A stretch of DNA of 64,000 nt, taken from assembly GCA_031265445.1 (NCBI GenBank), contig JAISCQ010000196.1, forward strand, positions 1,663-65,662. The letters run 5' to 3'. Position 1 is the stretch's first letter. Each line of letters begins with the position of its first letter. The notes beneath the pieces are model-generated. The model had not been told where the DNA came from, ran no database searches, and saw only the letters and a program-made list of their open reading frames with translations. The stretch comes from Bacteroidales bacterium. GTDB lineage: Bacteria > Bacteroidota > Bacteroidia > Bacteroidales > UBA4181. This document shows positions 6,414-54,677 of this stretch, piece after piece. The position numbers were made by a program, and so were the translations under genes.

Positions 6414-6485
6414 GGAGACGCGATGCATCCATTCTGTTTAGAGACGCGATGCATCGTATTAGAGACGCGATGCATCGCGTCTCTA
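6414..6485. repeat. Three direct copies of (T)AGAGACGCGATGCATC, the last completed into a 26-bp palindrome TAGAGACGCGATGCATCGCGTCTCTA (6460..6485)
   Basis: Read directly. It shares the arms TAGAGACG / CGTCTCTA with the palindrome at 4196..4223. It lies just downstream of the stop at 6540 of the minus-strand gene. Confidence 0.85.
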
Positions 6486-6539: not shown

Positions 6540-8384
6540 CTATGGGATGATCCCCTGGTGTAACAAGCCGAAATAAACCAAACCGAAAAGACCGGCATTC
6601 CATCCCTGTAAGCGGAATCCCAAATTTTCGCCGGTCAGGCTGTTGATATGCTCGTTGGGCGACCAATCACCCGAAGCTACCAAATCGGCATTTGCTACTC
6701 TTTTGATCAAATCGACGGCTTCTTTTTCTTTTCCGATACGGATCCGCGCCCAGCAATCCATGAAACTCAGCCAGGGCCACACCGCACCGTTGTGGTACGT
6801 TGCCGGAGGATAACCGAATTCTGCCGGATAATACGGATAGGTTTCGCAAATCCCGTAAGGCGTCAGGCTCATTTCGTTTAACGCCGCGATCACGCTTCCG
6901 GCTTTTTCACGGGGAACGACATCAAACAAAATACCGATCGTCTGGTCTTGCAGGAGCTTTTCATTGACCTCTCCGTTTTTCCATATCTGGCAATAATACC
7001 GGCCATTCCAAAGACCGCCTTTTTCCACCGGCCGATTGATGAAGTCGAATCCCTTTTCGAATGCCGCTTCATATTTCCGGCGGCTTTCGTCATCATCGCA
7101 TTCCTTACTCAGGAATACCATCTGCCGAAGCGCCGCCAGATAGATCAGGCCCGAAAAAGGCGAATACTTGCGCTCTTCCACTCCTCTTACATCCTTCCAG
7201 TCGCCCCAGAAAGAAACCTGCACCGGCAATCCGTTCCCGTCAGTATCGCGCGAGACGAGCCAGTCCGTCGCTTTTTTCAGGGAGGGCCAGTAAGCAGACA
7301 GATCGCTTCTGTTGTGATATAACTGATAGAAACGGGCAATCCGTAAAATGAAAAAGGCATTGATATCGATATCGTCTTCCCGCTCAATCAGGGGAAGAAT
7401 GGTGGTTGGTATCTTACCGGACGGCTGCTGGGCGGCGATGCTTTCTTCGATCATCTTCTTTTCCGCATCCCGGAACAGCACCAAATGCAGCCAGGACGTC
7501 CAGTAACTGTCGCGCTGGTTTAACTCGCAGTATCCCATGGTCAGTATTTCGTTATTTTTGGTGCATTTGGTCAGGGATATCCCCGGAATCATGTACCAGC
7601 GCAGACAGGTATCCAGTTCCCGATCGCCGGTTTCCGGAACGGCACGGTCGAACAGTCGGGTTTTTGCTTTCAGCGCCGGCCAGGTACGGTACGCATAGGC
7701 CGTGATCTCCTCCACGTTCCGAAAGCGGTTTGCCGCGATCCAGTCCGGATCATAAAACGCCAGGAGAACGCGTATCTTTTTCTGTTGGCGCGGCTCCAAA
7801 ACAACCGGTATGGCCAGCTCCCCGTTTTCCCATACGGCGTCGGCGTCGCTTGTCAGCTGGAACACATCGTTCCCGACGCCCCGGTAATTCCCGACGCCGC
7901 ATGCCTGCGCTCCGTTCGCCGGGGACAGATCCGGCTTCAGCCTGATCCTGAAATCTTCCCGCTTGCCGGCGCCGGCGCAGTCTATCTCAAGAAGCAGGAC
8001 AGGCAGCGAAGACGTTTCCATGTCGTTCACCCCTAACGGGCAAAAAGCCTCTGTGGAGATACGGGCGGATATCGCCGGCGACTTCCGGTACGAACCTTTC
8101 ACAAAAGGGAAAACCCGGCTGATTTGTTTTTCTTTAAATTCGGAAAACAAATGTCGCCGGTTTTCTTTTTCGATATAGAAGGTCACGGCGCCCTGATCAT
8201 CCAGCCATTTGCCTAACTGACCTGGATTCCGGAGTATCTTCCCGAAGAAATCGCCGTTTGCCGAAGCATTGACCGTCAAAGCAAAATTGGCAAGCGGATA
8301 ACCGTCCGTGCGTTGTTCCGTATTTCCGGACAGGACGCCGCCCGCGCCCGTACACAATAGTAAAAAGATGATGATTCTGTTCAT
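6540..8384 (-). CDS. Secreted (alpha/alpha)6-barrel glycoside-hydrolase-like protein (GH116/DUF608-like or GDE_C-like)
   Basis: 614-aa ORF with signal peptide MNRIIIFLLLCTGAGG. The C-terminal half has FWGDWKDVRGVEERKYSPFSGLIYLAALRQM and YHNGAVWPWLSFMDCW, which are typical of six-hairpin glycosidases. The family assignment is by recall only. Confidence 0.6.
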   Translation of the reverse strand: MNRIIIFLLLCTGAGGVLSGNTEQRTDGYPLANFALTVNASANGDFFGKILRNPGQLGKWLDDQGAVTFYIEKENRRHLFSEFKEKQISRVFPFVKGSYRKSPAISARISTEAFCPLGVNDMETSSLPVLLLEIDCAGAGKREDFRIRLKPDLSPANGAQACGVGNYRGVGNDVFQLTSDADAVWENGELAIPVVLEPRQQKKIRVLLAFYDPDWIAANRFRNVEEITAYAYRTWPALKAKTRLFDRAVPETGDRELDTCLRWYMIPGISLTKCTKNNEILTMGYCELNQRDSYWTSWLHLVLFRDAEKKMIEESIAAQQPSGKIPTTILPLIEREDDIDINAFFILRIARFYQLYHNRSDLSAYWPSLKKATDWLVSRDTDGNGLPVQVSFWGDWKDVRGVEERKYSPFSGLIYLAALRQMVFLSKECDDDESRRKYEAAFEKGFDFINRPVEKGGLWNGRYYCQIWKNGEVNEKLLQDQTIGILFDVVPREKAGSVIAALNEMSLTPYGICETYPYYPAEFGYPPATYHNGAVWPWLSFMDCWARIRIGKEKEAVDLIKRVANADLVASGDWSPNEHINSLTGENLGFRLQGWNAGLFGLVYFGLLHQGIIP

Positions 8385-8405
8385 TTTGATGAAAGGTTTT
8401 AAGGG

Positions 8406-11400
8406 TTACCGCAGTTTGATGATTTTCGTGACTTCCGTTTTCCCGTCCATATTCACGACACCGATATACAATCCGCTTGGGAAATCGCCGGTATTGATCC
8501 GGTTTTCACCCGGCAGGCAGGATACCGATATGACTTTCCGTCCGTCGATGGCGTAGAGGGAGAAGGATATCCGGCGATAGCCTTCCGGCGCGTCTATGAT
8601 AACGTAATCATTTGCCGGATTCGGATAGATTCGCGCCGAGTTGGTCGCCGTCTGCGACGGATGGATTTGCGACGGATCTTCTGTTCCCGTCGGGAGGCCG
8701 CCCGTTTGACTTACCGCTTTGTTGTAGCTGCTGTAGAAATTACTTGCGGCAATCGACGGGCGGTTGAAGAGGTAAACCGAATCGGCGCCGTCGGGATAAC
8801 GCCCTACGGACACATCGCCGCCGTGGCCTGCATAATAAAGCGAATCGCTCCATTGCAGATTGCTTGCCGTCAGTAAAACCACTCCGCCTTCGGAGGCCAG
8901 CTTGAAGGTCGCGTGCAGCTGGCTTTCCGCAGCCAAATCGTCGCACCAGACAATTTTATAGCCATACGCAGGAATTTGCGTCAGGTCGGGACGCCCTGCA
9001 GGAAATTGATATTTGGTCGGTCTGGCTTTGCTGTCGCTGAGATACATCCCGGCAATATCAACCGTCGAACGGGTCGTATTGTAGAGTTCTATCCAATCGT
9101 CCCGCTTGAAATACTCGTTCACATAAATGGAGTTGTCCGCGCTGACTTCATTGATCCGCACCGGAACAGATTTTCCCGGGTCTTCGATGAAAACGGCGCG
9201 TAAATTGAAACTTCCCGACGACGGGAGCTGTATTTCCGGAGCATTGGAATACGCCTGCGCGTCGCTAACATCCATACAGGAAAGCTGGGCGTCCAGATAA
9301 ATGTCGGACGACTCCGGCCTGTCCTGATGCACTTCAATGGCGATGACGTTATTGCCTTGCCGGAACAGCGAAGAAGGAAGCGAGATGCTTGTTTGATCGG
9401 GATTGCTGTATGCGTACTGCGTCGCGTAAGTCTGGTAGGTTACGGTTCCGCCGGGCATCTGGTAGCGGGCTGCTTCCGTGCCGTTGATATAAATGACCGC
9501 TCCATCGTCGATGGCAAGGTCCAACCTGAAATCGTCTCCGCTTGCAGGGGCTTTATCCAGCTGAAAGCTCCGGCGGAAATAAGCGGCGGGGTTCTTGCTG
9601 TTGGGGTTGCTCCCATAACTCACGGTGGTATTAAAGTCGTGGTTGCCGTATCCTAACGGGGCCTGTCCGCTTTTCCACGATGCGTGATCATTCGAGGCAT
9701 GCCATCCGGTACCGTCGAGCGAGCCCTCGTCGTAATAAGACCAGGACGACGCTGCATACGGCAATATAACCGTCCGGCCGGAAGTGAGCGTTTCCCATTT
9801 TGAAAATTTATACCCGGAAGGCGCCGTCGCCTTCACGGTTACAGGAGAGAAGACCCTTCCTTCAAACTTTCCCAAAGGAACGGGCTGTCCGTTGACCCGA
9901 ATCGTTGCGGCGGGATGGTTTGACGACAGGGAAAGGTTTTGAGGGGCGCCTAAACCCATAAAGCTGCGCAGGTGGCTGATCGCGTACGCAGGGCGTTGCT
10001 GCGCAAAAGTCCTCATCCTGTTTATGTTCGCGTCAAACGCATAGTTTCCCCATCGCTGTGAGTGGTATGTGGTTACTTCGGTACGCACTTTGCCGGCGAT
10101 GCTGTCCAGTATATGCTCGACGCGGGCAGGGGCGAAAATAGAGCCAGCCAGCAGGCAAAACCGCTCGCTGAACTGCTTTTTGAAATCGGGATATTTGAAC
10201 AGGTTTTGAATGAGGATCCCCATTTCAGAGTCTCCCCCGCCCCACTCGTTGAAAGTGTCGGTAAAACTGTTTTCGCCGGCGGAACCGAACAGGCCGAATG
10301 TCAAATCCAAATCATAGATCACAAAACGGAACTTCCCATCTTTGGTTTTGCGAAAGCCCTTGATGTTATTTTGCGGCCAGTCCCAATTATTAATGTAGAA
10401 TTGAGCGGCCAGATAATCGATACACGCATCGATATCGAGAAGCGCTTTCAGCTTTTCGTAATTGGCGGCGGCAGGCGCTCCGTCGGCCAGGGACTGAAGC
10501 TGCCTGAACGCGGCGTCCGTCCCGTTGAGCTGGGAATAGCCTATCCCGTTGGGCGCTATTTCAAACAGGTCGATTTCGGTATCGTCATATCCGTAGTTTT
10601 CATCGGCATACTGCTTGTTATTGCGTTCGCGCATATTGATGACGCCATAGTATTCGCCGTTGATATAATGAATAACGGGCTGGTATGCCTGACATTCCAC
10701 GTCCATCGTCGTACGGATCATGATCGACTGTATAAAAGCGTCTCCCATCATCGTCTGGTAGGAAGAGCCGTCGGTTCCGGAGTTTCTCAGAAGAACATGC
10801 TTCAGCCGGATATTCGGTTTCGATGGAAAGAAAGGGTAATTGAAGCGGTTTTTACCTTCATATTTCTTTTCGGCGCTGAGGTCGATCGATTTTTCGATAT
10901 GGTTGCGCGACGCGCCGCCGTTGATGGAGATATCACATTCCTGCTCAAACAGCTTTTCGCCGTCCGGAGAGAAGTATTCGATATTTGCCGGGCGCGCCCA
11001 GTCGCGATTCCAGTTTTTGGGGTATGGCATGTTGACGCCGGGTTTCCCGTTTGTTCCCTCGACATATATGCCGATTGTGTTGTCGTTAAGATATTTCGGG
11101 TTGGTCGTAATCGAAACGACCGGCAAGTTATATTCCCTGTTTTCGATGAAATAGCTGTGCGTGACGGTCGGACCTGGAATACGTCCCGCGGCGAACAGTC
11201 GCGTCCTCAATACGGTGGTTTGCGTGATGGAAAATGTTCCGGTCGAACTTGCGGGACTGTCTTCCGCCGGCTCGCTGCCGTCCGTCGTATAACGCAGGGT
11301 CATTCCCGCAGGGATGTTCGCCCTCACGGTTTTGCTCCCGGAATATATTCCGCCCGGAGCGTCAAACACCGGTTCCGGACACCGGACATCGGTAAATACC

Positions 11401-11903
11401 GAGCCGCTGTTCGTTTTGCCCGGTGACGGCGTAGCGCAGTGTTGCCATGCGCCGCCTCCGTCGACGGTGCGGGCATAGGACGCTCCTTTGATCTGTCCGG
11501 GAAAGGATACGGTCGAAACAGAGTTGCCGCTGTTGTCCGATAACGAGAGGGAGCCTCCTTCGCAGTCGAGCTTGAAATTGGTTTGAAGGCCGTTCAGGTC
11601 TTCGTCATTGCGTTCGCACCAGACGACGATGTAGCCGTTTGCCGGAACCGTGAATGAGCTGTGGTTGGGCATTCGAAACTTGCGGGGATTGTCAGCGTCG
11701 TCGCTTAGATACCATCCACTGACGGAAACCGCTTGCGCGCCGTTATTGTACAACTCGATCCATCCGCTAAAATTCCACGTAGGGCTTATGTACGAGGTAT
11801 TGGAAGGCATGATCTCGTTGATTGTCACAGCCGCTTTGATCCGGCTTGTACTGCATAAAAAAACGCCTATGCTTAATGCGATGAAAAATTTTCTGAACAA
11901 CAT
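8406..11903 (-). CDS. Secreted multidomain protein: lamin-tail domain (LTD), CotH kinase-like domain, beta-sandwich (CBM-like) domain, second LTD, and a T9SS C-terminal sorting domain
   Basis: Track ORF 8406..12536, trimmed to ATG 11903 (MLFRKFFIALSIGVFLCSTSRIKA, signal peptide). LTD: INEIMPSN...GWIELYNNG...GWYLSDD. CotH: LLRNSGTDGS, IHYINGEYYGVINMRERNNKQY, NNWDWPQNNIKGFR, FVIYDLDLTFG. T9SS CTD: ARIYPNPANDYVIID...GLYIGVVNMDGKTEVTKIIKLR. Confidence 0.85.
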   Translation of the reverse strand: MLFRKFFIALSIGVFLCSTSRIKAAVTINEIMPSNTSYISPTWNFSGWIELYNNGAQAVSVSGWYLSDDADNPRKFRMPNHSSFTVPANGYIVVWCERNDEDLNGLQTNFKLDCEGGSLSLSDNSGNSVSTVSFPGQIKGASYARTVDGGGAWQHCATPSPGKTNSGSVFTDVRCPEPVFDAPGGIYSGSKTVRANIPAGMTLRYTTDGSEPAEDSPASSTGTFSITQTTVLRTRLFAAGRIPGPTVTHSYFIENREYNLPVVSITTNPKYLNDNTIGIYVEGTNGKPGVNMPYPKNWNRDWARPANIEYFSPDGEKLFEQECDISINGGASRNHIEKSIDLSAEKKYEGKNRFNYPFFPSKPNIRLKHVLLRNSGTDGSSYQTMMGDAFIQSIMIRTTMDVECQAYQPVIHYINGEYYGVINMRERNNKQYADENYGYDDTEIDLFEIAPNGIGYSQLNGTDAAFRQLQSLADGAPAAANYEKLKALLDIDACIDYLAAQFYINNWDWPQNNIKGFRKTKDGKFRFVIYDLDLTFGLFGSAGENSFTDTFNEWGGGDSEMGILIQNLFKYPDFKKQFSERFCLLAGSIFAPARVEHILDSIAGKVRTEVTTYHSQRWGNYAFDANINRMRTFAQQRPAYAISHLRSFMGLGAPQNLSLSSNHPAATIRVNGQPVPLGKFEGRVFSPVTVKATAPSGYKFSKWETLTSGRTVILPYAASSWSYYDEGSLDGTGWHASNDHASWKSGQAPLGYGNHDFNTTVSYGSNPNSKNPAAYFRRSFQLDKAPASGDDFRLDLAIDDGAVIYINGTEAARYQMPGGTVTYQTYATQYAYSNPDQTSISLPSSLFRQGNNVIAIEVHQDRPESSDIYLDAQLSCMDVSDAQAYSNAPEIQLPSSGSFNLRAVFIEDPGKSVPVRINEVSADNSIYVNEYFKRDDWIELYNTTRSTVDIAGMYLSDSKARPTKYQFPAGRPDLTQIPAYGYKIVWCDDLAAESQLHATFKLASEGGVVLLTASNLQWSDSLYYAGHGGDVSVGRYPDGADSVYLFNRPSIAASNFYSSYNKAVSQTGGLPTGTEDPSQIHPSQTATNSARIYPNPANDYVIIDAPEGYRRISFSLYAIDGRKVISVSCLPGENRINTGDFPSGLYIGVVNMDGKTEVTKIIKLR

Positions 11904-11969
11904 GATACTGATTACTTGATTATTTTTATTTGGATGTAATGGATTCATTTCGAAAGAGGCCCCGAACAT

Positions 11970-12011
11970 GCTTCCCCGACGGGGGAAAGTCCCGGCGAGA
12001 CCTCGCGCATA
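11970..12011 (-). repeat. Single dispersed copy of the 42-bp double-hairpin unit, in inverted orientation relative to the array at 52031..52220
   Basis: The reverse complement GTATGCGCGAGGTCTCGCCGGGACTTTCCCCCGTCGGGGAAGC matches the array unit GTATGCTCGAGGTCTCGTTGGGACTTTCCCCACGAGGGGAAAG. In the protein shadow this reads YARGLAGTFPRRG versus YARGLVGTFPTRG. Confidence 0.8.
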
Positions 12012-12578
12012 CTGGCCGGTTGGCGGCAGGGTATAGCGGATAACGGTCGACTGATGGAACGGGTTGGGGATGTTTTGTTGCAGGGAAGTGCCGCTGTATG
12101 CCGCGTCCTGCAATCCGGGCGACGGTTCTACGGCGTTTTTGCTTCGCAACGCGCCCGACTCGGATCCTTCCCCCAACAGGCCGGAAAGCCGTTCGGTCAA
12201 TTCATCGATCTGTGCCTGCATCTGATCGTTCTGAGCTTGCATCTGCACCTGCAGCCGGTCGTTTTGCTCGCTAAGTTCCTGCACGGCTTTCACCAAAGGA
12301 ACGACAAACTCCGCATACCGCAATCCGTAGATGCCGGTTTCGTCCACATCCACGCTGAAATCGTAATTGGCGCTTTTGGCCGCCTCTTCCACGTCCTGTG
12401 CTATAAAGCCGGTCTGTCCCACTTTTTCTTTAGTTTCCCTTCCTTTTTTCTCGATGTCGATCAATTCCTGAGGTAACGCCTCCTCGCCGGGCCTTTTCTT
12501 TCGGTCGATTTTCAACAGGCCGTCTATGACGTCCAAATCGAGGTGATAGGTAACCGGTTGCAGGCGGTTAGTTTCGTG
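12012..12578 (-). pseudogene. Remnant of the C-terminal part of a protein with a peptidase-S74-like intramolecular-chaperone domain, a coiled coil and the start of a T9SS-type CTD. It has no N-terminus and is truncated at its 3' end by the repeat
   Basis: The frame opens just after TGA at 12581..12579 and has no plausible start. It encodes LQPVTYHLD...GFIAQDVEEAAKS...YGLRYAEFVVPLVKAVQELSEQNDRLQ (S74-like), then LQQNIPNPFHQSTVIRYTLP (CTD-like), interrupted at 12012. It is fused in frame to the next gene only through repeat sequence. Confidence 0.6.
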
Positions 12579-50491: not shown

Positions 50492-52003
50492 TCAGTTTCC
50501 ACTATTCAATTCTATCGCTTTTCCCTTTGCCGCTTCGGTAAACTCGTACGGTGAAACGTCCACTTTCCCGGAAATAAATTCGGGTATATTGTATGACTTG
50601 GTAGAGAAATCGTAATACATCGGATCTTTTTGAGGCAAAAGGAAAGGAGTGTAAACGTTCCCGTTCGTATCGAAATAGCAGATGTACGGACGTGTGAAGG
50701 CGCCGTCCGCGCGGCGGCTGCCAAAGACCATCCAGCGGCCGTTTGTCGACCATGAGTGATAACTGTCGCTTTGGTCGCTGTTGATTTCCGACAGGTTCCG
50801 GATCTCTTTCGTTTCCAAATTGAGGATATAAAGATCGTTTTCGCGGTGCCAGATGGGGAATGTACCATAGTTGGACATGCAGAAAACCACGTATTTGCCG
50901 TCAGGCGATACGCGTGCCAGCGCAACGCTCTTCCCTGTGCGCGCCGACGACACGAGCGTATCTATCTGCCGGCCGAAACGACTGGCGGAAGCATCGAAGG
51001 CGATGCGCAACAGATCGTAGCGCAACGAGTCATATTCCTGCGGCATGGGGCGTGCAGCGGCGCTGCAAAAGTAAAGATATCGCCCGTCGGGCGACCATTC
51101 GGGGAATGTTTCGAAATATTTTCCGGAATAAATCAGGCTGTCCGTAAAAATGGTATTGGTCTGGATATCGAACACCACGATGTCCGAAGCCTGGTCGTAC
51201 ACTTCCACTTTGTTGGTGAATGCTGTGTGGAACTCTTGCCGTGTCGTGTTGGCCGAGAAAGCCACATAACGTCCGCCGGGATGCCACCGGGGATATACGC
51301 CGGCCGAGAGCATTCCCGGAGCCCGGGTATTGACTTTGCTGATTTTCCCGTCCTTTACAAAGAGCGTTCCGGCATGTTGCTGACGCATATGAAAAAGCAT
51401 CGTTTGCGGGCTATGCCTGCAAAATGAGTGACAGTTCATGCAGTTCCTGTCGGTCAGGCTGTTCACCATGACAGGCGTTTCATCGAAATTTTCCAGGCAG
51501 CGCTGATAAATACCCATCTCGCCCCACACCTCGTAGCCCGGCTCTATCAAACGATAGGCAAGGTACGGATCGACCGGTTCGGGCGCTATGGTAAACCGCA
51601 GCGGGGAGTAACAAACCCATCCGGATGCCCCTTTTGCAAAAATACGGACGCTCATTTGTTCGCCGCGATGCTTTTCCAGCATCTTTTTCCATTTCTGCAA
51701 AGGGATCAACACCTTGCCCCTGCACGAAACATCAAACGAATCTTTTCCCGCAACGGCAAAACGGACGGTAAAGCGCGAGCCTTCCTCGCGGATCATGAAA
51801 TTCAGCGGGGCGATGTTACACGGGATCACTGTTCCCCGGTACGGCGGATAAATATTGGCCTGTTGCCCGATATTGGAGAAGTTGTTGCCCGGCTTGCCGC
51901 AAGCTGATAACAGGAGAAAAAGAAGGAGCCTCACCCCCCAGCCCCCTCTCCTAAGGAGAAGGGGAGCGTGCTTTGCAACGTAATCCGGTAAATTCTCCTT
52001 CAT
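50492..52003 (-). CDS. Lipoprotein with one CXXCH motif and a TolB-like (PD40) beta-propeller
   Basis: Track ORF 50492..52240, trimmed. The first 79 codons are the translated 42-bp repeat. The start is ATG 52003 or, better for a lipoprotein signal, GTG 51934 (MRLLLFLLLSACG). Motifs: NCMNCHSF (CXXCH) and the PD40-like WSPDGRY, VSPDGKY and WSTNGRW. Confidence 0.7.
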   Translation of the reverse strand: MKENLPDYVAKHAPLLLRRGGWGVRLLLFLLLSACGKPGNNFSNIGQQANIYPPYRGTVIPCNIAPLNFMIREEGSRFTVRFAVAGKDSFDVSCRGKVLIPLQKWKKMLEKHRGEQMSVRIFAKGASGWVCYSPLRFTIAPEPVDPYLAYRLIEPGYEVWGEMGIYQRCLENFDETPVMVNSLTDRNCMNCHSFCRHSPQTMLFHMRQQHAGTLFVKDGKISKVNTRAPGMLSAGVYPRWHPGGRYVAFSANTTRQEFHTAFTNKVEVYDQASDIVVFDIQTNTIFTDSLIYSGKYFETFPEWSPDGRYLYFCSAAARPMPQEYDSLRYDLLRIAFDASASRFGRQIDTLVSSARTGKSVALARVSPDGKYVVFCMSNYGTFPIWHRENDLYILNLETKEIRNLSEINSDQSDSYHSWSTNGRWMVFGSRRADGAFTRPYICYFDTNGNVYTPFLLPQKDPMYYDFSTKSYNIPEFISGKVDVSPYEFTEAAKGKAIELNSGN

Positions 52004-52030
52004 ATGAATGTGCTTTATGCCCGGATCACA

Positions 52031-52220
52031 GACTCCCCCGACGGGGGAAAGTGTGCCCGAGGCCTCGTTGGAACTTTCCCCACGTGGGGAAAGTATGCCC
52101 GAGACCTCGTTGGGACTTTCCCCACGAGGGGAATGTATGCTCGAGGTCTCGTTGGGACTTTCCCCACGAGGGGAAAGTATGCTTGAGGCCTCGTTGGGAC
52201 TTTCCCCCGTCGGGGATAGG
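52031..52220. repeat. Tandem array of 4.5 copies of a 42-bp double-hairpin unit (GGACTTTCCCCACGAGGGGAAAGTATGCYCGAGRCCTCGTTG)
   Basis: Units start at 52031 (degenerate), 52071, 52113, 52155 and 52197. Each contains CTTTCCCC-ACGA-GGGGAAAG and the palindrome CGAGGCCTCG. The array starts immediately after the stop at 52221..52223 of the upstream gene. Confidence 0.9.
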
Positions 52221-54098
52221 TTAATATCTGTTCTTTTCATCTTCTTCCTGTAGGATTGCCGGTTTAATGAAATGTATGTAATACCAGTAGGTATTGCCGA
52301 ATTGCTTTTTCAACTGCTCCATATTGCGTTGACTGCTTTGCGCCGCCTTGAATGCCTGTACATACCGGGCGAAACGTTCGCGCGTTGCCCGGCTGACGGG
52401 ATATTGCGCATAGAATTCATCGCCTGCCCGCATCGAATTATGGTATACGGTCAGCGCTTCCTCGTAATGGGTCGGTATGTCCGGGTAATCAAAATTCCCA
52501 TAAAACCGGTCCATGCACCATTTCACCTGTTCCACATCCTTTTGCAGCATATAATAAGCCATCAGGTATTCGAACGCTAAACGGTGCCCGGGGTTCGACT
52601 GCAAGAGCATCAGCAGCGAACGGTCGGGATACTGATAGTGGATGAAGAAATCGCTGTAGCGGCGAGGTGTTGGGATACCCGGAATATGAAAAGTCGAATC
52701 AGCCATTGCCGACGCGAGATTTGCGCGCTGCCGAGTCGCCCATTTCCGGTAAACAAGGCTACGGTCGAAATACCCGAGGTACTTATGAGCGGCTGCCGAG
52801 TCGCGGCGTTCGATGCTGGTTATTACCAGCCGGCACATGGTCTGTGCGTTCGGCTCCTTCGGGTTTGACACCAATGCCTCGAAAGCGCAGTGTTCCGCTT
52901 CGGGGATCATCCCCAGACGGTAATAAACTTCGCCGAGGCACCACAATGAAAAATAGGTCAGTTGCCTGTCCAAAAATAAACCGGCAACGCCTATCTGCCT
53001 GTATTGGAACATCCGGTAGGGCATCTGCCCCGATTCGGCCAGTGCGATATTGGTGAAATAGCAGGCCAGCCGGTTCCTGGCAGGATAGGCTTTGCCCAGC
53101 GCCATCACCGGTTTCCAGTTGCCGTGCTGCACCTCGCAAGTCATCCGGGCGAGCATCTCTTCCCTGTTGCTGTACGCCGAATGAACGGCGCAGGCAGTCG
53201 CCATAACCGCCAGGATGCAGTTGGGAACAAGAATTTTCCAGGGCGCCAACTCCCATCGTCCCGGTTTGCCTGCAACCAGCCTCCAGATAAGGTATAACGC
53301 CGGCAACGAAAGCCACAGCGCCTTACTGGCGATGGTTGGGAAAAAGAAATCCCACGGCGTCAGTGCAAAATATGCTTCGCGGAGGGGGACTGTATAAATC
53401 GTGCGCCAGGCTACCCGGGGTAACCATACGGACACGGCAATCAACGCCAGCAAATAAAGATATTTGCTCCCGACGCTCCATCTCCTGTTGCCTCGCCGAG
53501 GACAACAGGGTGGGGAGAGAGGCTGGCTTAACTCGAAAATGAACATCAGCGCCGACAGCAGCAGAGCGTTCCCTCCGGCGATCAAATACAGGATAGCGAA
53601 CAGTATCAAGCCTGCAAAATACCTTCCCGGCAAGGAGATTGAAATGTACTGTTTGAACCCGGCCAGTGCAAGCAGAAGTCCCAGCGCCGCCGACATGTTG
53701 AAATGGGCATTCGTAAAAGACCCCAAGAGTAAAACGGCAGGGATGAACGGGATGAAGAACAGCCGTCCGATGTTGCCGCAAGCCCGGCAAACAGAGTAGA
53801 AAAGCAGGCAGGCAGCTGCGGTGGCGCCCGCGATGATCATGGAGCCTGCAACGGGATAGAAATAGAACTGCGTGAGAAACGAACCCAGATAACCGGATAA
53901 GCCGCCGGGCCGACCGAGATATGAGCGGAGATACAACCCGTCGAACCGGAAAAGCTGCATCTGCTCGTGATAGAACAGGATGCAATAACGGTTGCAGCCG
54001 TAGACCCACAGCGCCGCAAACACAGCAAACAGGGCGAGCGTGAAGTATATTACCAGGGAATATAATCGGGGGTTGGACATAAAAATCACATTTTGCAC
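52221..54098 (-). CDS. Large polytopic membrane protein with a C-terminal soluble helical-repeat domain (resembles the Bacteroidetes DUF6057-type family; assignment by recall only)
   Basis: 625-aa ORF. About 10 hydrophobic segments lie in the first 330 aa. The remainder is a soluble, helical, TPR-like region (YRLGMIPEAEHCAFEALVSNPKEPNAQ). Confidence 0.7.
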   Translation of the reverse strand: MQNVIFMSNPRLYSLVIYFTLALFAVFAALWVYGCNRYCILFYHEQMQLFRFDGLYLRSYLGRPGGLSGYLGSFLTQFYFYPVAGSMIIAGATAAACLLFYSVCRACGNIGRLFFIPFIPAVLLLGSFTNAHFNMSAALGLLLALAGFKQYISISLPGRYFAGLILFAILYLIAGGNALLLSALMFIFELSQPLSPPCCPRRGNRRWSVGSKYLYLLALIAVSVWLPRVAWRTIYTVPLREAYFALTPWDFFFPTIASKALWLSLPALYLIWRLVAGKPGRWELAPWKILVPNCILAVMATACAVHSAYSNREEMLARMTCEVQHGNWKPVMALGKAYPARNRLACYFTNIALAESGQMPYRMFQYRQIGVAGLFLDRQLTYFSLWCLGEVYYRLGMIPEAEHCAFEALVSNPKEPNAQTMCRLVITSIERRDSAAAHKYLGYFDRSLVYRKWATRQRANLASAMADSTFHIPGIPTPRRYSDFFIHYQYPDRSLLMLLQSNPGHRLAFEYLMAYYMLQKDVEQVKWCMDRFYGNFDYPDIPTHYEEALTVYHNSMRAGDEFYAQYPVSRATRERFARYVQAFKAAQSSQRNMEQLKKQFGNTYWYYIHFIKPAILQEEDEKNRY

Positions 54099-54272
54099 AA
54101 AATTACAAAAAATAAGGAGTGATCATGCAATCCGCGAAATCAAACTGAGGGCTTCGTGCAAATGGTCGCAGGATTCCGCGTTCGGCGGAAAACCGCCAGG
54201 TAATGTGTAAAAAATAAGATGGCAATTATATATAACAGACATGAAAAGTCGGATTTTCATCATCACAAACGA

Positions 54273-54617
54273 CGTTACAGTAACGACGCGGGCATGGTCA
54301 CAGTAATGACGTGGGCATGGTCACAGTAATGACGTGAGCATGGTCACAGTAATGACGTGGGCATGGTCATAGTAATGACGTGGGCATGGTCATAGTAATG
54401 ACGTGAGCATGGTCATAGTAATGACGTGAGCATGGTCATAGTAATGACGCGGGCATGGTCACAGTAATGACGTGAGCATGGTCACAGTAATAACGTGGGC
54501 ATGGTCATAGTAATGACGTGAGCATGGTCAGAGTAATGACGTGAGCATGGTCATAGTTATGACGTGAGCATGGTCATAGTAATGACGTGAGCATGGTCAC
54601 AGTAATGACGTGAGCAG
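54273..54617. repeat. Tandem array of a 23-bp unit GGTCAYAGTAATGACGTGRGCAT: 14 full copies plus 1 degenerate copy, with no spacers
   Basis: Counted directly. The first full unit starts at 54296 and the period is exactly 23 bp. All frames are interrupted by stops, and the track shows no ORF here. Confidence 0.95.
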
Positions 54618-54677
54618 GGACACAAGCGTCACATTCACAGCCGTCATTCCGACGAAAGTCAGGTTGAACGTGAATCC

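Follow-up and report, generated by a model that had tools for sequence, protein, structure and literature searches.

Tandem repeats of 22, 23 and 41 nt have been described in P. gingivalis within the elements BrickBuilt and MITEPgRS (PMC4596501; PMC2575886). MITEPgRS (MITE464; Naito et al. 2008, PMC2575886; Klein et al. 2015, PMC4596501) resembles the 42-bp repeat family analysed here in its Bacteroidales host, in its head-to-tail units of approximately 41 nt without spacers, and in its intergenic placement with several copies per genome and a unit number that varies between copies and strains. It is set apart by IS5-like TIRs and Repeat A/B flanks, whereas the 42-bp family has no TIR, TSD or shared flanks; there is no sequence similarity between the two, and cross-species stem covariation was shown for the 42-bp family. 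BrickBuilt (P. gingivalis and P. gulae; Klein et al. 2015, PMC4596501) is likewise a taxon-restricted, strain-variable intergenic tandem repeat, but it has a 23-nt unit, a leader and tail with TIRs and demonstrated promoter activity, in comparison to the 42-bp family with neither TIRs nor a shared leader or tail. A BrickBuilt-type 23-bp class is also abundant in the genome under study, including an array that neighbours ours at 54277-54624.

REP and BIME sequences of Proteobacteria occur in hundreds of copies, alternate in orientation within BIMEs and have a cognate Y1 transposase gene flanked by REPs. They share with the 42-bp family the form of short imperfect extragenic palindromes, often clustered, that build mosaics with other motifs and can sit between cistrons, and they differ from it in that the family numbers approximately 20 units at five to six loci, arranged head to tail and with no Y1 co-occurrence. 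BOX elements of Streptococcus pneumoniae, with the order boxA-boxB(n)-boxC, defined boxA/boxC ends and more than 100 copies, offer a hairpin-forming module of approximately 45 nt (boxB) that varies in tandem number and is dispersed in intergenic DNA, but they belong to a different phylum and have no sequence relation to our unit. Overall, the 42-bp family works like the repeat-bearing MITEs of P. gingivalis but without their ends, and it appears to belong to a Bacteroidales class of arrays, with periods of 21–23 or 41–43 bp, that includes BrickBuilt and MITEPgRS.

The array was studied in a window of 64,000 nucleotides, by which we mean the whole stretch of DNA that was analysed, from a 4.6-Mb MAG (G000; 309 contigs, 49.5% GC) whose DNA occurs in termite-gut metagenomes and whose nearest named relative is a Dysgonamonadaceae MAG. 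The features of the junction are as follows.

52031..52220, + strand: 42-bp double-hairpin minisatellite, four full units and a terminal H1 hairpin, defined by direct reading, TRF, motif scan and fold
52221..54098, - strand: DUF6057 polytopic membrane protein gene, whose stop codon abuts the array
50492..52003, - strand: PD40/TolB-like beta-propeller lipoprotein gene, with the lipobox Cys codon at 51899-51901
52238..52240, - strand: ancestral ATG of the lipoprotein gene, which shares a 20-nt overlap with the DUF6057 stop
51973..52030, no strand assigned: unique 58-bp spacer within the inserted block, carrying ATG 52001-52003
51924..51972, + strand: REP-like hairpin element of approximately 45 bp at the left end of the inserted block, unrelated to the 42-bp unit

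An earlier note on this DNA had described 4.5 head-to-tail 42-bp units at 52031-52220, and this description was borne out by TRF (match at 52037-52207, period 42, 4.1 copies, 90% matches) and by direct reading, which gave the order H1-P2-H1-P2-H1-P2-H1-P2-H1, in which four P2 palindromes are interspersed among five H1 hairpins. The H1 stem has 9 bp and is capped by a tetraloop, and P2, a palindrome of 10 bp, is of the CGAGGCCTCG type; the H1 motif, with up to three mismatches, was matched six times in the window against 0.01 expected from shuffling. The boundaries were also as previously placed, with the DUF6057 stop codon TAA (52221-52223) abutting the array and ATG 52001-52003 lying 27 nt from it. 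Units are oriented along the + strand, antisense to both flanking genes. Folding of the array, a check that the note had proposed, returned -134 to -136 kcal/mol on either strand (approximately -135 kcal/mol on both, z of about -11), and one long hairpin can be formed. The array is stop-free in five of six frames, one more than had been counted before, and all three sense frames of the 42-bp unit are stop-free. Rfam at gathering thresholds matched tRNAs alone in the window, with no match at the array. A CRISPR array was ruled out as the 42-bp units abut without spacers. The array is genuine and well delimited, a hairpin minisatellite from a family restricted to one genus.

Within the genome under study this family comprises three arrays and two solo copies, and the units within each array always run head to tail. 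In addition to the array above, its members are the following.

C3:16687-16860: family array of four units, abutting a different 42-bp array
C168:25941-26223: family array of seven units
C124: family solo unit
11950..12011 of the window, - strand: inverted family copy of approximately 1.5 units (one unit and a degenerate half), the end of a truncated array

The inverted copy, earlier placed at 11970-12011, does exist and spans approximately 11950-12011 when its degenerate half unit is included. It had been taken as a solo copy arguing for mobility or recombination. The sister MAG G041 (L002), 95% identical to the window over 7128-12013, carries five units at the orthologous site upstream of a CotH gene; the homology stops at 12013, inside the element, beyond which lies DNA that is multicopy in G041. 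As five units occupy the orthologous site, the apparent solo of the window is a truncated array end and not an independent transposition, so that it loses its value as evidence for transposition. The supposed truncated gene remnant beside it (12012-12536) gave no credible Pfam match. DNA at 12012-12570, possibly a repeat or a mobile element, is present in at least four copies near contig ends of G041 but only once in full in G000.

A covariance model of the unit matched five of 14 congeners and none of six genomes from other genera of the family Dysgonomonadaceae; G041 was found separately by pattern scan and is additional to these five. Pattern scans of metagenome, viral and genome contigs yielded one real array, in the Dysgonamonadaceae MAG G041, and their other matches were single chance matches in coding DNA. 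The proposal of a structured, dispersed repeat family is upheld by the three arrays and two solos in this genome, the array in G041 and diverged versions in congeners, and the distribution of matches indicates that the family is confined to one Dysgonomonadaceae genus. The surroundings of two of its arrays are also of note. A second, unrelated 42-bp array of 4.8 units (C3:16867-17067) directly adjoins the C3 double-hairpin array, on whose other side lie remnants of a 23-bp family, indicating that arrays of different families pile up at shared sites. At C168:25917-26240, an ORF of 107 codons passes through all seven units and its stop lies in an ATGA overlap with the start of the downstream gene, and the start ATG of this ORF heads a 3-codon mini-ORF in G008.

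Comparison between species showed that the period is 42 bp in G000 and 41–43 bp in relatives, and that the linker TTGGGAC stays the same whereas both arms of each stem vary. The H1 stem is CTTTCCCC/GGGGAAAG in G000 and G041, TTTCACC/GGTGAAA in G007, and either CTTGCCGG/CCGGCAAG or CTTGCCC/GGGCAAG in G013, and P2 takes the forms CGAG..CTCG, CCGA-GGGG-TCGG, AACCGA-GG-TCGGTT and CGGA-GT-TCCG. In a covariance-model alignment, itself fitted to the structure, 74% of cells pair and the covariation score was 0.195, in comparison to 0.12 for shuffles (0 of 500 reached 0.195) and at most 0.11 for slid controls. Covariation counts from a MAFFT alignment were muddied by loop-length shifts; the covariance-model alignment was better but model-fitted. 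Differences in register between lineages keep these covariation figures modest. The pattern of substitutions indicates that compensatory change preserves the two stems throughout the genus, which was not shown in the P. gingivalis work; a host function would also be compatible with this cross-species conservation of the two hairpins. Most units fold better as the unit strand than as its complement, and the orientation of units relative to transcription is antisense at three loci and sense at two, a mixture that argues against a single RNA-level role.

The junction with the flanking genes was compared with the orthologous locus of three congeners (G002, G006 and G013), all of which lack the array. 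In each, the first residues of the lipoprotein are MK[RK]T.., its ATG lies in a 20-nt overlap with the DUF6057 stop, and the lipoprotein signal peptide follows directly. In G000, the old ATG at 52240 is kept and is followed by approximately eight codons, a block of approximately 290 bp, and then the hydrophobic core and lipobox. This block is a mosaic of the 42-bp array, the 58-bp spacer and the REP-like hairpin of approximately 45 bp, and its presence in G000 against the 20-nt stop/start overlap in the three congeners gives the polarity of the event as an insertion. The DUF6057/PD40 locus is unassembled in the sister MAG G041. The "intergenic spacer" at this locus is thus a recent insertion within the first codons of the lipoprotein gene, one that has physically uncoupled the DUF6057 and lipoprotein genes and would have broken their ancestral translational coupling. 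The earlier note had suggested that the array could decouple the two genes; this holds in the sense of physical uncoupling by insertion. An evolved mRNA-stabilising role is not supported.

An ORF of 582 aa (50492-52240) is open from ATG 52240 through the entire array into the lipoprotein gene. It had been dismissed as a misleading N-terminal extension, a label that does not suit it, as it begins at the true start codon of the three congeners. Three start candidates are available in G000: ATG 52003, the choice of the gene caller (P0001), which gives a 503-aa form with a 34-residue signal peptide; GTG 51934, which gives a compact signal peptide; and ATG 52240, which gives a long leader with the lipobox Cys as residue 114. 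An N-terminal leader made from ATG 52240 would be removed by signal peptidase II.

The hairpin at 51944-51968, formerly regarded as related to the unit, belongs to a separate dispersed element of approximately 45 bp with a different sequence. In this element a C-rich lead precedes a hairpin whose 9–10-bp GC stem pairs CCCCCTCTCC with GGAGAGGGGG around a loop, and the element shows compensatory stem variants. It is present in at least six copies in G000 (window 51924-51972, C128:13225, C91:6223, C302:704-845, C300:26300 and C70:5038), two of them directly 3' of stop codons, and also occurs in the congener G002.

Array length was found to differ between strains, a comparison that had been proposed. 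In a contig from a second termite-gut sample (X2; depth 50.7, flanks 96–97% identical), 30 nt replace the 183 bp at 52035-52217, and these 30 nt represent a partial P2 and one H1, or approximately 0.7 unit in this strain, which is roughly 97% identical, in comparison to 4.5 units in G000. The alleles differ by 153 nt, a length divisible by three though not by the unit, so that the long ORF from ATG 52240 is also open in the X2 allele. A second variable locus is the inverted copy at approximately 11950-12011, with five units in G041 versus 1.5 in the window. Joints within the array from X1 (skip 92, back 164) came from short repeat contigs and were excluded as evidence. Upstream of DUF6057, a 23-bp array of 15 copies (54277-54624) is missing in the X2 strain, where 8 nt replace 54196-54671; with both arrays strain-variable, the DUF6057 gene is flanked by two strain-specific expansions.

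The manner of dispersal was addressed at the C168 array, a filled site for which G008 provides the empty counterpart, with flanks 93–94% identical and a 301-bp insert 8 nt upstream of a start codon. At this one clean site both a TIR and a TSD of at least 3 nt were absent (ambiguity at the junction being at most 2 nt), and the ends of the insert fall within H1. The same junction in G002 carries a different repeat, and no further clean empty site came from the solo unit of G008, where synteny is broken. Flanks of the three family arrays matched neither each other nor any other array flank, and the IS5-type TIR found at the ends of P. gingivalis MITEs showed no excess in G000. A single IS200-like Y1 transposase gene (153 aa) was located in G000 at C242:7049-7682 (L029:1314-1947). 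It is bracketed by 87-nt inverted repeats, unrelated to the 42-bp unit, of which approximately 15 further copies are dispersed in G000, and the layout resembles a REP/RAYT-like or IS200-MITE arrangement. The family occurs without a Y1 match in G007 (93% complete, 10 units), G009, G004 and G008, and Y1-rich congeners are without the 42-bp family.

The earlier note had inferred a REP/BIME-like or MITE-like element and had proposed a search for a RAYT/IS200-like transposase. One such gene is present, but its flanking repeats are unrelated and the two do not co-occur across the genus. The family shares with REPs the short imperfect palindromes (H1 and P2) in extragenic DNA, and shares with MITEs the spacer-free internal tandem units of variable number (4.5 versus 0.7; 5 versus 1.5). 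Against REP/BIME membership stand the head-to-tail units, the low copy number and the lack of a cognate RAYT, and against MITE membership stands the clean empty site without TIR or TSD. The outcomes for RAYT, copy number and orientation, TIR, TSD and shared flanks together place the family outside the REP-RAYT and MITE classes.

We consider it likely that the array is a genus-specific, hairpin-forming minisatellite of the Bacteroidales class, recently inserted, and selfish or neutral to its host; it is probably selfish or neutral DNA and no purpose-built regulator. The mosaic block of approximately 290 bp lies after roughly codon 8 of the lipoprotein signal peptide. Unit number may since have changed by slipped-strand mispairing or unequal recombination, favoured by hairpin extrusion, as suggested by the length alleles and by the array-specific unit variants. 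Stems may persist as hairpin formation is part of the propagation of the element or, alternatively, as the arms correct each other by templated repair. Any effect on the host would be collateral, with coupling broken and the lipoprotein either initiated anew at ATG 52003 or GTG 51934 or, where the old ATG is used, made with a long N-terminal extension.

It is possible, though we hold this only tentatively, that the repeats are translated, with the start still at ATG 52240 and coupled to DUF6057, and with the leader removed by signal peptidase II. The array would then supply approximately 63 residues of a 113-residue leader ahead of the lipobox, and the n-region would serve as a tolerant landing pad in which selection keeps the insert in frame and stop-free. 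This would agree with the frame that is open from 52240 in both the G000 and X2 alleles despite their 153-nt difference, with the three stop-free sense frames of the unit, with the n-region of G006, which is also lengthened, and with the 107-codon ORF of C168, which bridges its array and ends in an ATGA overlap. By a rough count the frame would be preserved by chance with a probability of approximately 0.02–0.07, so the two-allele preservation is weakly suggestive of continued use of ATG 52240. However, an h-region preceded by more than 100 residues is unusual in Sec/SPII export, the gene caller picked the 503-aa form, no homologue in a set of 5.8 billion proteins carries the repeats, and ATG 52240 would also be conserved because it lies inside the C-terminal codons of DUF6057. 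An RNA-level cis element, in which the hairpins protect the 3' end of the DUF6057 mRNA or set differential expression of the cistrons as in E. coli REP/BIME, is improbable. The very stable fold, the covarying stems and the location of two arrays (window and C168) between co-oriented genes speak in its favour, but the three congeners without the array and the sister strain with a single hairpin have intact genes, the orientation is mixed (three antisense versus two sense loci), the better-folding unit strand is antisense at the window array, and no Rfam match was obtained. The absence of the array in congeners, the single hairpin of the sister strain and the mixed orientation equally count against the stabilisation of the upstream mRNA that had been proposed for it.

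The dispersal data bear on a further explanation that we regard as unlikely, namely a non-autonomous transposable element, either a MITE mobilised, as in P. gingivalis, by an IS5-like DDE transposase or a REP/REPIN mobilised by a Y1 (RAYT/IS200-like) enzyme. Copies dispersed in both orientations, the filled and empty site pair (C168/G008), the Y1 transposase in G000 and the published relatives, which are MITEs (PMC4596501), would all be expected of such an element, but the clean site lacks a TIR as well as any TSD of at least 3 nt, the ends of the array lie inside H1, the array flanks share nothing, IS5-type TIRs are not in excess, and the Y1 gene is flanked by the unrelated 87-nt repeats and does not co-occur with the family. 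Less probable still is a DNA-level protein-binding array, with palindromes phased every four helical turns for a dimeric regulator or nucleoid protein. The 42-bp period, the two palindromes per unit and the conserved linker TTGGGAC would suit this role; stem sequences that vary between species with pairing kept, however, point to structure and not to sequence readout, the array is dispensable in relatives, and no candidate protein is linked to it.

The preferred reading of a hairpin minisatellite can be set against the repeat content of the whole genome. TRF identified 233 arrays in G000, with periods of 21 (99 arrays), 22 (20), 23 (40), 41 (29) and 42 bp (45), and almost no arrays at other periods between 15 and 60. 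As 37 of the 233 arrays lie at contig ends, in comparison to nine expected, this count is a minimum. Approximately 113 unit families make up a slightly broader set of 237 arrays, and a perfect stem of at least 6 bp is present in half of the 41–42-bp unit families. Among the sampled genomes, G013 is similarly dense and G002 has few arrays, and periods of 21 and 23 were also found in a genome of another family of the order. G000 further contains 71 long dinucleotide tracts, and approximately 61 kb of it lie in arrays with a period of 15 bp or more.

Two associations of these arrays were observed. Small REP-like palindromes lie beside arrays of 61 different unit families and form BIME-like mosaics with them; their types include a 28-bp GTAGAGACGCGATGCATCGCGTCTCTAC, GACCTGACAGGGTC and GAGCCGAATTGCAAATTCGGCTC, with examples at C80:13250-13400, C268, C274:27523-27670 and window 6438-6477. 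Genes for DUF6261 (PF19775) have a minisatellite within 1 kb in 10 of 18 cases, in comparison to a random expectation of 2.3 (0 of 2000 trials reached 10). The linked array is directly upstream in nine of the ten and mostly has a period of 41–42 bp (one 82, one 21), each array being of a different unit family (for example C79:20087-20271, C200:5211-5636, C242:13874-14053, C59:3130-3287 and C189:30342-30524). For seven of the other eight DUF6261 genes the contig breaks off on the upstream side.

The sharp periods are most simply interpreted as old common ancestry of the units with fast sequence turnover and a conserved period, as the same pattern was seen within the 42-bp family across the genus. 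A rather unlikely alternative is a hitherto undescribed Bacteroidales process that builds and spreads tandem arrays of a measured length (21–23 or 41–42 bp) independent of sequence, where this length would be about two or four helical turns. Linked to this alternative is the possibility that arrays landing at operon junctions are retained because they contain no stops and, as translated bridging peptides, would maintain the coupling of ribosomes.

For annotation, these results mean that the start codon of the lipoprotein and the apparent spacer ahead of it are both products of a recent insertion. More broadly, such arrays give rise to spurious ORFs, displace start codons and interrupt MAG assemblies, and a length-measuring mechanism, if true, would be a real discovery. 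The locus offers a dated and polarised case in which a hairpin minisatellite entered a translationally coupled junction and then came to vary in length between strains.
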